Of a stretch of 10,056 bases of DNA, positions 40 through 4,908 are shown in pieces. The position numbers and the translations under genes are program-made. Source of the DNA: a virus; UHGV virus genome UHGV-1666018, one strand, 5' to 3'. Position 1 is the stretch's first letter. The number at the start of each line of letters is the position of its first letter. The notes beneath the pieces are model-generated. The model worked only from the letters and a program-made list of their open reading frames with translations, did not search any database and was not told the origin of the DNA.

Positions 40-753
40 GAGCGTTCCATCTCCAAAGCTATCCTCGGCGGCACGCTGACCACGGAAGCCGGAGACAAAG
101 GCGCGCGCTCGCTGGGTGAAGTGCATAACGAGGTGCGCCGGGAAATCAGGGATTCTGATTTACGTCAGCTGGCCGCCACGCTGAACCGCGATCTGGTGTA
201 TCCGCTGTATGCCCTGAACACCGCCCACGCCATTGATATCCGTCGCCTGCCGCGTATCTGTTTCCAGACAAAAGAGCCGGGGGATATCACCAAAATCACC
301 AGTGCGGTGATGCAGCTCAGTACGGGGATGGATATTCCTGATCCCTGGGTACGGGAGCAGACCGGTATTCCACAGCCTGCCCCCGGTGAAGCCATCTTCC
401 GTGTCCGTCAGAGTGGCAATGAACCTGCTCAGACAGACAAAGAGATGCCACCGGAAAAACAGGAAAAGACAGAGCAGACGGCGCTGTCAGCCCGAGTGCC
501 GGAAGCGAAAAGCAGCCCCCGTGATGAACTGGACGACATGGGGGACGCGGTGCCTGCCCGCCGGTTACAGGAGGCCATCGACCCGCTACTGGATCCGGTC
601 ATTGATGCCATCAGAACGCGGGGGCTGGCGGATGCGCTGGCAGACCTGCCCGCCCTTTACCGTGAAATGGATGATTCCCGTCTGATGACGCTGCTCAGTG
701 ATGCCATGTTTGCTGCGGAAATGAAGGGGATGCTGGATGGCACAGGGGATTGA
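40..753 (+). CDS. Portal protein, C-terminal fragment (Mu gp29/H-like); 5-prime truncated at the adapter junction
   Basis: Frame is open from the first genomic base and ends at TGA 751-753, overlapping the F start. It sits immediately upstream of a MuF-family gene, as the portal gene does in Mu. The GTG at 25 given by the ORF track lies inside the adapter and is not a real start. Confidence 0.7.
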   Translation, partial: ERSISKAILGGTLTTEAGDKGARSLGEVHNEVRREIRDSDLRQLAATLNRDLVYPLYALNTAHAIDIRRLPRICFQTKEPGDITKITSAVMQLSTGMDIPDPWVREQTGIPQPAPGEAIFRVRQSGNEPAQTDKEMPPEKQEKTEQTALSARVPEAKSSPRDELDDMGDAVPARRLQEAIDPLLDPVIDAIRTRGLADALADLPALYREMDDSRLMTLLSDAMFAAEMKGMLDGTGD

Positions 754-2062
754 TTTAGGTTATGCCGCGACCCTTCCCTCAAAAGAGGCAGTGGCATACT
801 TCCGCGCCAAAGGGGCGCATATCAGCTGGAACTGGTTCGAAACAAACGCAGATGTTCATGCCCGTTCATTCACGGCGGCAAAAGTGGCACGCCTGGACGT
901 ACTGACCACACTACAGGCGGAAGTGCAGCGTGCTGTTGATGAGGGGATTTCACAGAAAGCATTTATCCGCACACTGACGCCCCGCCTGCAAAAGCTGGGA
1001 TGGTGGGGAAAGCAGATTGTGGTGGACAGCGCCGGTAACGCGGAAGAAGTGCAGCTGGGCAGTCCCCGCCGTCTGGCGCTGATTTACAACGTGAACACCC
1101 GCGTGGCTTACAATGCCGGGCGTTACACGCAGATGATGAACAACACGGACACGCATCCGTTCTGGCAGTATGTGGCGGTGATGGACAGCCGCACCCGCCC
1201 GGCACATTCCGCCCTTAACGGGCTGGTATTCCGCTATGACGATCCGTTCTGGAATACACACTACCCGCCCAATGGCTGGAACTGTCGCTGCCGTGTCCGG
1301 CCATTGTCTCAGGCCCGTCTGGATGCAATGGGGTTATCCGTTTCATCCGGTCAGGATCATCTCTCCACCCGCAATGTTGAGGCTGGCGTGGATAAGCAGA
1401 CCGGGGAAGTCAGAGAAATGCCGGTGACCACATATTCAGATGGCACCAGAACCATGACACCGGATGTGGGCTGGTCATATAACCCCGGCTCGGCAGCGTT
1501 CGGCACAGACCAGGCGCTGATCCGCAAACTGATCGAGGTGAAAAGCCCGGAGTTACGGGAAATGGTGGTTCAGGAGATGAACAACAGCCCGGAGCGGCAG
1601 CTGGCGTTCCGCATCTGGGCAAAAAATATCATGAAGACCCGGCGCGGTGGTCACGATATCCGCACGCTGGGCTTTATGACCGAAAGTATTGCGCAGGCGG
1701 TGGAAAGCCGGACGGGAACACCTCCGGCCCGCCTGCTGGCTATGAGCGGTAAAAATGTGCTCCATGCGGACAGCGTGAAGCATCAGAATGATGGCATCGC
1801 CCTGACGCCGGAGGATTTCGCACAGCTTCCCGCCATGCTGGCCGCACCCGATGCCGTGCTGTGGGATAATGTCCACCAGAACCTGCTTTACATCACTGAA
1901 ACCCGTGACGGAACGGCAAAGATTGCCGTCAATGCGCCTTATGGTGTGAAGCGTCAGCCGGATAAGCTGGATGTGGTGATTAATGCCTACAGAGTGAGTC
2001 GTGCAACCCTGATTGATGCTGTCCGGGGTGGAAAACTGGAATTACTGGAAGGTAAGTTGTAA
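737..2062 (+). CDS. F: Phage head morphogenesis protein, MuF (gp30) family
   Basis: 441 aa ORF containing the MuF hallmark region RTRPAHSALNGLVF...HYPPNGWNCRCRVRPL. Position between portal and G-like genes matches Mu. A GA-rich stretch precedes the ATG. Confidence 0.85.
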   Translation: MAQGIDLGYAATLPSKEAVAYFRAKGAHISWNWFETNADVHARSFTAAKVARLDVLTTLQAEVQRAVDEGISQKAFIRTLTPRLQKLGWWGKQIVVDSAGNAEEVQLGSPRRLALIYNVNTRVAYNAGRYTQMMNNTDTHPFWQYVAVMDSRTRPAHSALNGLVFRYDDPFWNTHYPPNGWNCRCRVRPLSQARLDAMGLSVSSGQDHLSTRNVEAGVDKQTGEVREMPVTTYSDGTRTMTPDVGWSYNPGSAAFGTDQALIRKLIEVKSPELREMVVQEMNNSPERQLAFRIWAKNIMKTRRGGHDIRTLGFMTESIAQAVESRTGTPPARLLAMSGKNVLHADSVKHQNDGIALTPEDFAQLPAMLAAPDAVLWDNVHQNLLYITETRDGTAKIAVNAPYGVKRQPDKLDVVINAYRVSRATLIDAVRGGKLELLEGKL

Positions 2063-2149
2063 GCCGGTGGTGGGGGTCGAACCCACATAAACATCCTTCG
2101 GGCGAGGATATCCCTCAGGTGCCGCTTTACCAGTTAAGAGTACACCAGC
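2063..2149 (-). other. tRNA-like element (T-arm plus acceptor-stem mimic); not a confident tRNA gene
   Basis: On the minus strand the 3-prime part reads GTGGG-TTCGACC-CCCAC-CACCGGC: a canonical 5-bp T-stem, 7-nt TTCGANY-type T-loop and a 7-nt strand that pairs with GCTGGTG at the 5-prime end (7 bp, one G-U). The interior does not form a canonical D-arm or anticodon loop, and no CCA is encoded. Confidence 0.25.
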
Positions 2150-2187: not shown

Positions 2188-2661
2188 ATGTCATCCATTG
2201 ATGCGGCTGTGGTGGTGGACGTTGCGCGTCTCCAGCGGGTGTTTGCCCGGCTTCAGTTTGTGGAAGGCGGGAAAGACCTGGCCCGCAGTGTGGCGGCGAG
2301 TCTTCTGTCATCGTCAGAAATGGCGTTTGAACAGGAAAAAGAGCCGGACGGCGAACGCTGGCATGACTGGTCAGATCCTTACCGCAAGTGGCGTACCCGT
2401 AAGGGATACATGCCCGGCAAAATCCTGACGCTAAACGGCGATCTGGCCCGACGCCTGACCACGGATTATGGCGATACCTGGGCGCTGATTGGATCAAATG
2501 AGCCTTATGCGGCCATTCATCAGTGGGGTGGCCTGCCCGGTATGCCACCGGGACCGGCAGCCATTGGCGCGCGTCCGTATATGGGCTTTGATCAGGTGGC
2601 AGAGCAGGAGATCATAGACGAAATCAGAAAACGCTTTAAAAAGGCCACAGAAACGCCTTAA
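2188..2661 (+). CDS. G: Virion morphogenesis protein, Mu G (gp31) family
   Basis: 157 aa ORF with a strong GGAGG Shine-Dalgarno sequence 5 nt upstream of the ATG. Size and position after F match Mu G. Confidence 0.8.
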   Translation: MSSIDAAVVVDVARLQRVFARLQFVEGGKDLARSVAASLLSSSEMAFEQEKEPDGERWHDWSDPYRKWRTRKGYMPGKILTLNGDLARRLTTDYGDTWALIGSNEPYAAIHQWGGLPGMPPGPAAIGARPYMGFDQVAEQEIIDEIRKRFKKATETP

Positions 2662-2836: not shown

Positions 2837-3961
2837 ATGAAGACGAAAAACACGCCCAAACTTGCTTATGCCATTCTGAATGCCATCAGCCTGTCCGCAG
2901 ACGGGGACGGTGACTGGTGTCAGATCATGCCTGCCGGTCGGGTAAAGGCCCGTGACGGTCGCCCGGAAAAACCGGCTGAAGGCTGGCTGATTAACCGTGC
3001 GACCGTTGAGCGCATGGTATCCCGGGTTGTGGCGCTCAATCAGCCGGTAAAAATTGACTACAACCACCAGACCCTGATTAAGGGGCATCCGGCACCGGCT
3101 GCCGGTTTTGTCATGGCCTCACCGGAAAACTTCCGCTTCAGTGAAGAGCGGGGTTTTGAAGTGCGTCCGGACTGGAACCCTCCGGCCATTGAACACCTGC
3201 GCAATAACGAGTTTCCCTGGTTTTCCCCGGTGATTGGTTATGACGAAATCACCGGGGAACCTGTTGAGCTTCGGATGCTGGCTATTACCGGTGACCCCGG
3301 TCTGACTGGCATGAGTCCTGTCGCCGCACTGTCGGCGGATGACCTTTATAACGCCTTAAACCCTCCTTTAAAGGACACCTCCATGAATGAGCAATTACGC
3401 CAGTTGCTGACGGCGCTCGGTCTGACCGTGGCTGACGGTGACGAATTTACGCCGGAACTGGGCACGGCGGCGCTGTCTGCCCTTACCGGGATCAAAACCC
3501 GTGCGGATGCGCACGACACCCTGAAAACGCAGGTTGCCAGCCTGTCGGCAGAGCTGGAAACCGCAAAAGGCACACCAACTGGCGGCACTATTGATCTGAC
3601 GAAATACGTGCCCGTTGAGACGTATAACGCCCTGCGTACCGAATATGTCGCGCTGTCGGCACAGCACGGCAGCACCACGCTGGAGCAGTTGCTGGATAAG
3701 GCCGAGTCCGAAGGACGCATTTTCAAAAGCGAACGCGGATACATGGAAGGACTCGGACAACAGATTGGCGTTGCAGCACTTTCTGCACAGCTTGACGCCC
3801 GCCAGCCGGTTGCGGCTCTGACCACTCTTCAGACCGACACCGTGACCGTGCCGGATAAAAAGACCGCCACAGCCTCACTGTCGGCTGAAGATATCGCCGC
3901 CGCCCATCTGCTGGGTAAAACTGAAGCCGAGTTCCTGAAAATGAAAGAGGAAATGCAATAA
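2837..3961 (+). CDS. I: Head maturation protease / scaffold protein, Mu I (gp32) family
   Basis: 374 aa ORF between G-like and major-head genes. The C-terminal half is Ala/Leu/Glu/Gln-rich and predicted helical, as expected for a scaffold. Its stop overlaps the T start (TAATG). Confidence 0.8.
   Translation: MKTKNTPKLAYAILNAISLSADGDGDWCQIMPAGRVKARDGRPEKPAEGWLINRATVERMVSRVVALNQPVKIDYNHQTLIKGHPAPAAGFVMASPENFRFSEERGFEVRPDWNPPAIEHLRNNEFPWFSPVIGYDEITGEPVELRMLAITGDPGLTGMSPVAALSADDLYNALNPPLKDTSMNEQLRQLLTALGLTVADGDEFTPELGTAALSALTGIKTRADAHDTLKTQVASLSAELETAKGTPTGGTIDLTKYVPVETYNALRTEYVALSAQHGSTTLEQLLDKAESEGRIFKSERGYMEGLGQQIGVAALSAQLDARQPVAALTTLQTDTVTVPDKKTATASLSAEDIAAAHLLGKTEAEFLKMKEEMQ
3383..3961 (+). 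CDS. Possible nested scaffold protein from an internal in-frame start (Mu Z-like)
   Basis: In-frame ATG at 3383 preceded by AAGGA (3371-3375) at about 7 nt spacing. Downstream sequence is the scaffold-like half of I. Mu makes Z by internal initiation within I. Confidence 0.35.
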   Translation: MNEQLRQLLTALGLTVADGDEFTPELGTAALSALTGIKTRADAHDTLKTQVASLSAELETAKGTPTGGTIDLTKYVPVETYNALRTEYVALSAQHGSTTLEQLLDKAESEGRIFKSERGYMEGLGQQIGVAALSAQLDARQPVAALTTLQTDTVTVPDKKTATASLSAEDIAAAHLLGKTEAEFLKMKEEMQ

Positions 3962-4908
3962 TGCCTACCCCGATTACACCGGCGATGATCACCGCCCTGA
4001 TGACGGGCTACCGTTCTGATTTTCAGGCCGGGATGTCCATGGCTCCGTCGCAGTACCAGAAAATTGCGATGACCGTACCGTCCACGTCGAAATCCAACAC
4101 CTACGGCTGGCTTGGGCAGTTCCCGCAGTTCCGTGAGTGGATCGGCTCCCGCGTCATCGAGAAGATGAAAGCCTATGGCTACGCCATCGTGAACAAAACC
4201 TTCGAAGGCACCGTCGCCATTAGCCGCGATGACTTCGAAGACGACAATCTTGGCATCTACTCCCCATTGTTCCAGGAGATGGGGCGCGCTGCGGCGGCAC
4301 AACCGGATGAACTGGTCTTTGCTGCACTGCGTGACGGGATTAGTGCGGCCTGCTATGACGGCCAGAACTTCTTTGATACCGAACACCCGGTTTACCCCAA
4401 AGTGGATGGCTCCGGGGATGCACAGATGGTCAGCAATATGTTTGTGGCAAAAACCGGCTCTGTCGGTGCACAGGCGGATTACAGTGGCCCGGCCTGGTAT
4501 CTGCTCGACTGCTCCCGCGCGGTAAAACCGCTGATTTATCAGGATCGCCGCAAAGCCGAACTGGTTGCCCAGACAAAAGTCGATGAAGGCCGTGCGTTTA
4601 CTGATAACGAGTTTGTGTTCGGTGCTTCCGCCCGTCGCAATGTGGGCTACGGCTTCTGGCAGATGGCCTACATGATGCAGTCACCGCTGACGCTGGATGC
4701 GCTGTGGCACGGCTGGTCAGCCATGCGTGACTTTAAGGCTGACGGTGGCCGCAAACTCGGCATCAAACCCACCCATATTGTTGTCCCCACCTCGCTGGAA
4801 AAACAGGCGGTGCAGCTGCTGGAGCGCGAGCTGTTCGCAGACGGTAACGCCACAGTCTCTAACGAGATGAAGGGCAAGCTGGAGCTGGTTGTCGCGGATT
4901 ATCTGTAA
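3961..4908 (+). CDS. T: Major head (capsid) subunit, Mu T (gp34) family
   Basis: 315 aa ORF immediately after the protease/scaffold gene; size and position match Mu T. Followed by a strong stem-loop. Confidence 0.85.
   Translation: MPTPITPAMITALMTGYRSDFQAGMSMAPSQYQKIAMTVPSTSKSNTYGWLGQFPQFREWIGSRVIEKMKAYGYAIVNKTFEGTVAISRDDFEDDNLGIYSPLFQEMGRAAAAQPDELVFAALRDGISAACYDGQNFFDTEHPVYPKVDGSGDAQMVSNMFVAKTGSVGAQADYSGPAWYLLDCSRAVKPLIYQDRRKAELVAQTKVDEGRAFTDNEFVFGASARRNVGYGFWQMAYMMQSPLTLDALWHGWSAMRDFKADGGRKLGIKPTHIVVPTSLEKQAVQLLERELFADGNATVSNEMKGKLELVVADYL

Follow-up and report, generated by a model that had tools for sequence, protein, structure and literature searches.

A probable gene for a conserved, anticodon-less tRNA-like RNA between late genes F and G of Mu-like phages

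Between genes F and G of a Mu-like prophage, we find what is probably a real, conserved and expressed gene for a tRNA-like RNA that has no anticodon, a member of an apparently unstudied family in many Mu-like phages. The DNA analyzed, hereafter the window, is a stretch of 10,056 nt from UHGV virus genome UHGV-1666018 that represents the head-tail module of the prophage, and the element takes up 88 nt of its minus strand. The comparative evidence laid out below makes it very likely that this is an expressed and selected RNA gene whose product does not decode. On the current view, phage tRNA genes help with codon usage or replace tRNAs that host defenses have destroyed. A conserved phage tRNA-like RNA wholly unable to decode fits neither role.

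The tRNA-like element in the F-G gap

The 125-nt gap lies between F, a minor head protein gene (737-2062, plus strand; Pfam Phage_Mu_F and MuF_C), and G, a virion morphogenesis gene (2188-2661, plus strand; Phage_tail_S). Both genes flank the element without being part of it, and both had been labeled correctly in an earlier reading made without database searches (the sequence-only reading). A Mu-type protease I gene (ORF 2837-3961) is a neighbor in the window. The G-to-I gap of 175 nt (2662-2836) has a terminator-like hairpin on the minus strand (2835-2819), and in the annotation of Mu the equivalent region holds a strong gyrase site, a terminator and the late promoter for I.

Read along the minus strand from 2149 to 2062, the element follows the order of a tRNA. 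The 5' strand of the acceptor stem, GCUGGUG (2143-2149), pairs with CACCGGC (2063-2069) over 7 bp that include one U.G. The sequence-only reading had described this helix and an 87-nt element, and both descriptions stand once the discriminator U is counted (3' strand and discriminator, 2062-2069), which brings the length to 88 nt. Position 2062 doubles as the final base of the F stop codon, and CCA is not encoded. The connector between acceptor and D stems, UAC (2140-2142), consists of U8-A9 and one extra C, giving 3 nt where a usual tRNA has 2, and is invariant throughout the family. It leads into the D arm, UCUU-AACUGGUA-AAGC (2124-2139), whose loop is of the A14/A15/G18G19/A21 type and whose stem has one U.C mismatch in the window copy. 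A canonical D arm had been denied to the element from the sequence alone; it is nonetheless present, and its stem covaries in relatives (GCUU/AAGU, GGAU/AUUC, GAGU/AUUC). After a variable arm of 34 nt (2090-2123) at the anticodon-arm position come UAU (2087-2089), an invariant remnant of the variable loop whose final U sits at the U48 position, and the T arm GUGGG-UUCGACC-CCCAC (2070-2086), as canonical as first described.

The variable arm begins with proximal pairs (G.U, C-G, A-U) that covary in relatives, and its distal part is an allele-specific closed hairpin without an anticodon loop. Because a closed hairpin replaces that loop, the tRNA-like RNA cannot decode. The palindrome GGATATCC (2100-2107, with an EcoRV site within it) and the hairpin AUCCU-CGCCCGA-AGGAU, to which the sequence-only reading had drawn attention, do occur inside this arm. 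The palindrome is incidental, since it is already lost in the closest relative, L002, which reads GGATATCT there, and the hairpin competes with the fold that the relatives support.

The Rfam tRNA model (RF00005) aligns to the element end to end at 27.8 bits (E = 7e-4 in 351 nt searched), just below its gathering score of 29, and places 26 nt at the anticodon stem-loop, where 11 are expected. The window copy has the acceptor stem, the T-Psi-C-R-A T loop, the G18G19 D loop and the core tertiary nucleotides of a tRNA, and has neither a 5-bp anticodon stem with a 7-nt loop, nor U33, nor a readable anticodon, in agreement with the earlier remark that a canonical anticodon loop is missing. A covariance model made from relatives scores the same copy at 74 bits. 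Between 1950 and 2300 no Rfam family other than tRNA matched at E <= 10, no family was at or above its gathering threshold in the whole window, and ARAGORN called no tRNA and no tmRNA there. The same program, run over 56 family loci, called no family gene a normal tRNA and reported one locus as 'tRNA-???'. We rejected an ordinary tRNA or tmRNA on the blank ARAGORN result in the window and the lack of any normal tRNA call at the scanned family loci. Folded as a single sequence, the element is no more stable than shuffles (z = -0.9 on the minus strand, -0.1 on the plus strand). As these z-scores are uninformative, the evidence for structure is comparative rather than thermodynamic.

The element is already known to annotation pipelines, solely as the label 'tRNA-OTHER'. 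E. coli 102651 carries a sequence 100% identical to all 88 nt (ACQCOH_RS18505), labeled in this way by NCBI PGAP. A query with the chassis alone matched at full length in at least 157 of 5,426 complete E. coli genomes, among them O157:H7 strains and two plasmids; nearly all of these copies bear the tRNA-OTHER label and are flanked by the F and G homologues of Mu-like prophages, one carrier being prophage Sp18 of O157:H7 Sakai. These calls are neither errors nor pseudogenes. A full-text literature search returned no published description of the element. Within the collection of cultured phages searched, family members are confined to the partial Pasteurella phage Pmp9 (OR544140.1, 10105-10183, unannotated and 100% identical to the copy at L130) and two Stx phages that carry an inserted Mu-like phage.

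Conservation, arm types and transcription signals

Pattern scans of viral contigs, of one genome per species and of E. coli loci gave a family of 58 distinct sequences, from Enterobacterales, Pasteurellales, Orbales and Alteromonadales within the Gammaproteobacteria. A covariance model, R1, was built from these 58, and pair counts were made after realigning the same 58 to it. Standard pairs fill 93.1% of the cells in the 58 sequences, against 37-56% when the 3' partners are slid by 1-3 columns. Both-sided changes occur in 14 of the 19 pairs (acceptor 6/7, D stem 3/4, proximal arm 3/3, T stem 2/5), so that the compensatory changes which the earlier reading had named as a test are found in all four helices. 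None of 500 shuffles reached the observed covariation score, and RNAalifold recovers the acceptor, proximal-arm and T stems from a MAFFT alignment fitted to no structure. The invariant positions (U8, A9, A14, A15, G18, G19, A21, U48, G53, T54-Psi55-C56, A58 and C61) make up the tRNA core and elbow. Together these comparisons indicate that the fold is under selection.

G.U pairs are frequent on the tRNA strand and would be A.C on the opposite one. Because they exist on that strand only, it is the tRNA strand that functions, in antisense to the late operon; we rejected a functional structure in the late mRNA (plus strand), since G.U would become A.C there and the T-loop motif would be lost. The acceptor stem, the discriminator and the first base pair vary freely among relatives. 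Position 3:70 may be C-G, U-A, G-C, A-U or U.G, so that G3.U70 is not conserved, and CCA is encoded in none of the 58 sequences. The free variation of acceptor stem and discriminator therefore indicates no specific synthetase or other acceptor-reading partner.

Most copies (48 of 58) lie between G and an F homologue 44-98% identical to the F of the window, always in antisense. Of 79 viral loci sampled on the F protein alone, 50 have the element directly after F. Mu and 27 other loci without it have F-G gaps of -4 to +11 nt, overlapping or abutting, whereas loci with it have gaps of ~100-125 nt that the element fills completely. Since F and G overlap or abut in Mu and the other lineages without it, the element is a conserved insertion and not a scar; aligning the junction, as the sequence-only reading had proposed, thus returns both answers, conserved in the family and inserted relative to Mu. 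An insertion between two genes that are contiguous in related phages is what characterizes a phage moron, as does an own promoter and often a terminator; in this family, consensus promoter matches are conserved and terminator hairpins occur in three clades, with none in the window. Its distribution is patchy relative to F similarity, which fits an accessory insertion that is old and has undergone gains, losses or transfers.

tRNA-like genes that are more divergent, and whose anticodon arms are abnormal, were seen at L013 6792-6871, L169 2911-2976, L275 3821-3894, L097 3793-3878 and L059 4994-5072. The first three are at the F-G junction of distant Mu-like phages whose F is 34%, 44% and 49% identical, respectively. 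L169 has a second family copy upstream of F on the same strand (4456-4534), and the gene of L097 is 86 nt long with a 13-nt loop. A divergent version of 66 nt has an arm of 4 bp closed by GAAA.

Family members also occur outside the F-G junction. An 8.4-kb island inserted in mdtP of the Shiga-toxin-producing strain E. coli STEC17-183 (NZ_CP075652.1; L277 16646-24640) encodes an integrase, HTH, Ash and Icd-like proteins, DUF4222, a RepA helicase, SSB, PerC and a Mor-family activator, and at its end has three tandem tRNA-like genes with three different arms (L005 3895-4194). PGAP annotates two of the three, one as 'tRNA-Tyr', which is another family member whose 6-nt loop merely contains GUA. 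The island may be a satellite of Mu-like phages, and its array, with a promoter-like site at the first copy only, is reminiscent of a tRNA operon transcribed as one unit and occupies the place where a satellite-like element has its cargo; as such an operon it would need tRNA-type processing. In another Mu-like group (L140 11859-13330, L153 429-1055) the tRNA-like gene follows the major head gene, beside DUF2971 and DUF2199 genes, in what looks like an accessory-gene cluster. A few copies are chromosomal. In Alishewanella aestuarii (L178, 3656-3729 and 4457-4527) a genuine tRNA-Gly(CCC) is followed 730 nt downstream by a family member with no F or G detectable near it, and the region may be an island integrated at tRNA-Gly.

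All 58 arms fold as one unbranched hairpin of 17-37 nt. In the commonest, an outer stem of 4-5 bp leads through a small internal loop with unequal sides (5', AA or CA; 3', CAC, CAU or AG) to a GC stem of 3-4 bp with a stable cap, which may be UUCG (8 sequences), GCAA, GAAA or GUAA (8 sequences) or a triloop. The window arm belongs to a longer class with 9-16-nt loops. By eye, nothing convincing linked the arms to CRISPR repeats, boxB or host anticodon arms.

The arms differ between close phages and are shared between distant ones. Between the window and L004, third codon positions are 86-89% identical and the chassis 93%, and the arms 44%, with different lengths. L054 and L070, like L002 and L195, have flanks 93-100% identical and arms merely 33-53% identical. 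Along the last pair, identity is 100% through G, falls to 35-65% within the element, is 55-85% in the ~300 nt of F that follow, and is 100% again beyond them. Conversely, L195 shares the whole element, arm included, with L022 and L073 at 97-100% despite flanks of ~70%, and L004 is 90-97% identical to L070 and L150 despite similarly diverged flanks. Between distant phages, no other stretch of the F-G region is as well conserved as the element (90-100% against ~70% for the flanks), and neither the 'degenerate tRNA' nor the 'recombination scar' offered by the sequence-only reading accords with this conservation or with G.U pairs on the tRNA strand only. A neutral spacer was likewise rejected for the arm, which is 97-100% conserved between phages with ~70% identical flanks. 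Because arms are conserved across distant phages and differ between close ones, the arm types are limited in number, each of them under purifying selection, and are shuffled among phages by recombination. The comparisons indicate an arm that is functional and not a neutral stub. Strong conservation combined with frequent exchange is what specificity determinants in genetic conflicts typically show.

F ends in a C-terminal tail (~1990-2059, the last ~20 codons, after ...NAYRV) that is hypervariable between prophages otherwise 95-100% identical. In a comparison of L002, L003, L004, L195, L011, L022, L054, L070, L101 and L150, the tail type changes together with the tRNA-like allele, the recombination block being the element plus 60-300 nt of the 3' end of F. 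L054 and L101 share a tail and differ in the arm loop, and no base pairing was found between arm and tail, so we treat the co-change as linkage.

Upstream of the element on the minus strand, we predict a -35 hexamer, TTGCCT (2181-2186), which overlaps the Shine-Dalgarno sequence of G on the other strand (GGAGG, 2179-2183), and after a 17-nt spacer a -10 hexamer, TAAAAT (2158-2163). As the latter ends 8 nt before the acceptor 5' end, any leader would be 0-3 nt long. Relatives have TTGCCT, TTGCCC, TTGAAC or TTGCAT at the -35 equivalent, and the predicted -10 ends 5-14 nt before the mature 5' end across the family, with hexamers that differ among clades. Upstream regions score at least 8 of 12 in 47 of the 58 sequences and at least 9 of 12 in half, against 2.8% in shuffles. 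By its match to consensus, this is a conserved promoter-like site of the sigma-70 type, and an antisense promoter of this kind would be consistent with expression either in the lysogen or straight after entry. In three clades the 3' end is followed at once by a GC hairpin and a U-run, which the window copy lacks.

A possible role and its alternatives

We are evenly divided on whether the element is a stand-alone, trans-acting gene for a non-decoding tRNA mimic, an accessory moron lying antisense between late genes F and G. That the mimic is directed at a protein in a conflict is a more tentative proposal, which we doubt somewhat more than we believe. We infer transcription, processing, action in trans and the identity of a partner as follows. 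Host RNA polymerase would initiate a few nt ahead of the acceptor stem, from a sigma-70-type promoter belonging to the element, and host tRNA-maturation enzymes would trim the transcript, with RNase P at the 5' end, trimming nucleases at the 3' end, and then the CCA-adding enzyme. T4 tRNAs that lack CCA mature in this way, by RNase P, RNase BN/Z-type trimming and CCA addition. The RNA produced would be stable and L-shaped, its acceptor/T-arm stack and its D-loop/T-loop elbow both intact, and would be barred from decoding by the closed hairpin at the place of the anticodon loop. Acting in trans, its tRNA-shaped core would be seen as a tRNA by a tRNA-binding protein, and the exchangeable arm types would set which partner or variant is engaged. 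The arena would most probably be phage-host or phage-phage conflict, where the RNA might, for example, inhibit a tRNA-directed effector or lure it as a decoy, or might be an exclusion determinant that the lysogen produces. We favor a conflict over a role in head assembly because the element occupies an accessory position (in prophages and in a satellite-like island), because its antisense promoter is of the sigma-70 type, and because its types are discrete and exchangeable.

Several observations count against parts of this proposal. Arms whose caps are generic stable tetraloops have the look of structural parts more than of recognition surfaces, a decoy would face competition from a very large pool of cellular tRNA unless the RNA is preferred by its partner, and the strict F-G position and antisense orientation of most members could reflect a local role. 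A further step, in which the arm is the specificity module of tRNA-shaped RNAs that neutralize tRNA-directed immune effectors, or direct them in a lysogen, would amount to RNA-only counter-defense or exclusion with discrete 'serotypes', and is speculative enough that we consider it unlikely. The swapping of arms together with the F C-terminal tail suggests a bolder variant still, in which F would bind the RNA and deliver it with the injected DNA.

A serious rival is a base-pairing RNA with a target in the host, although we regard base pairing as improbable overall. The tRNA body would here serve processing and stability, and the arm loop would pair with an RNA target as C4 and CI do, the arm type setting immunity or regulatory specificity. 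Arm types conserved across distant phages and swapped between close ones would suit such an RNA, as would the 9-16-nt loops exposed by long-class arms, that of the window among them, the three different arms of the tandem array, and the C4 and CI precedent itself. Scans for duplexes with three whole prophages (~40 kb, both strands) nevertheless showed cognate pairings to be no more favorable in energy than non-cognate ones (a 3x3 test), and a 12x12 test of the adjacent F tail mRNA and the 3' trailer showed no cognate-specific complementarity, although short kissing contacts could escape duplex scans. The commonest arms, moreover, end in UUCG or GNRA tetraloops or in triloops, which offer no seed for pairing. 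Rfam C4 (RF01695) had no match at E <= 10 in 1950-2300, while P4 CI, the positive control, matches it at 74.9 bits, and R1 had no match in P4. A C4/CI-type antisense RNA was rejected, given no cross-match of models in either direction and no cognate target in the three prophages, the F tail or the 3' trailer. Of the 'tRNA-mimicking regulatory RNA' suggested by the sequence-only reading, the mimic holds up, by the model match, the compensatory changes in every helix, the kept promoter and the held position; the regulatory part was not borne out, and no base-pairing target was found.

A cis-acting regulator of the late operon seems quite unlikely. Antisense transcription, starting from the promoter that overlaps the G ribosome-binding site, or pairing with the late mRNA at the F-G junction would damp or uncouple F and G, for instance by silencing leaky late transcription in lysogens, and the invariably antisense orientation of junction members, the overlap of the -35 hexamer with the G Shine-Dalgarno sequence and the abutment of the 3' end on the F stop codon all point that way. 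Such a regulator gives no reason for a complete tRNA core with compensatory changes, however, and the RNA does not cover the G ribosome-binding site, a terminator separates the element from F in three clades, and in Mu-like phages without the element F and G just overlap. Since some members are found away from any F or G, a purely local antisense role is unlikely.

We give still less credence to a real adaptor, that is, an RNA aminoacylated and used in translation, with the loop CGCCCGA read as anticodon CCC, or serving as amino-acid donor in a non-ribosomal reaction. The acceptor/T-arm half is intact, and the arms of the window and L002 can be drawn with a 7-nt loop containing CCC; this loop lacks U33, though, and sits on a stem of 7-9 bp, too long for the decoding site. 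Most relatives have loops of 3-6 nt, no discriminator, first base pair or G3.U70 is conserved, and the lack of an encoded CCA is general. Least probable of all is an element with no RNA function, whether a tRNA pseudogene in decay, a recombination scar or a site acting as DNA, for instance in integrase attachment; the sub-threshold Rfam score, the missing anticodon and a degenerate copy (L006) beside an integrase in a tRNA-Phe island speak for it, but the comparative data largely refute it, through strand-specific covariation that includes G.U pairs, conservation above that of the flanking coding DNA, a promoter kept in relatives, and retention while F diverges to 44% identity, or 34% in one outlying relative.

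Comparison with known systems

Phage tRNAs commonly lack an encoded CCA, as this family does. Canonical phage tRNA genes share with it the acceptor stem, D arm, T arm and tertiary core, as well as the status of accessory phage cargo, and the family T arm resembles those of phage tRNA-Leu, tRNA-Met and tRNA-Lys. They differ in that the family has a 3-nt connector and no anticodon loop, falls below the Rfam threshold, is missed by ARAGORN, and could not replace a cleaved tRNA in translation. T5 tRNA-Tyr is an example of a phage tRNA that rescues against a tRNA-directed defense, retron Ec78 (bioRxiv 10.1101/2023.03.15.532788).

The tRNA-like domain of tmRNA (SsrA) is also a tRNA top half without an anticodon. 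The T-arm sequence GCGGGUUCAACUCCCG of some family alleles presumably occurs in E. coli ssrA as well. The family differs in having a normal D stem, an arm where SmpB would bind, and no mRNA-like part. Conserved G3.U70, a missing D stem, linkage to a tag reading frame and detection by ARAGORN, by which a tmRNA is known, are all absent from it. The tRNA function of SsrA is reported to influence Mu prophage repression (Ranquet et al. 2001, cited in PMC11633108), so that, as far as that report goes, tRNA-like functions would not be foreign to Mu biology. We take this link as a lead only.

C4 and CI are immunity RNAs of P1/P7 and P4, matured by RNase P. C4 of P1/P7 and CI of P4 (RF01695, clan CL00128) resemble the family as small phage or satellite RNAs whose variable loops set specificity between similar elements. 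C4, however, has a 17-bp closing stem with two hairpins and neither T nor D loops, and the tRNA-like element finds no target repeats in its own genome.

Non-decoding tRNA mimics are known from bacteria too. YrlA, a bacterial Y-RNA-like molecule, differs from the family in being circularly permuted, having both ends within its long stem and being linked to Rsr, and the 'tRNA-Other' pseudo-tRNA of Bacillus cereus in being chromosomal and having an anticodon arm. The mascRNA of MALAT1 and the tRNA-like RNAs of murine gammaherpesvirus 68 share the tRNA shape, the atypical anticodon arm and the lack of decoding; they are recognized by tRNA-processing enzymes and are not charged. These RNAs belong to another domain of life with other machinery, and are released from longer transcripts, whereas the family has its own predicted promoter.

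The same architecture, a tRNA body with an arbitrary hairpin in place of the anticodon arm, was arrived at by design in the tRNA scaffold that Ponchon and Dardel are said to have engineered in 2007 for RNA hairpins in E. coli, and which reportedly gives stability and correct processing. That scaffold is man-made and the family is natural. Common and easy to manipulate, the family would be the scaffold's natural counterpart.
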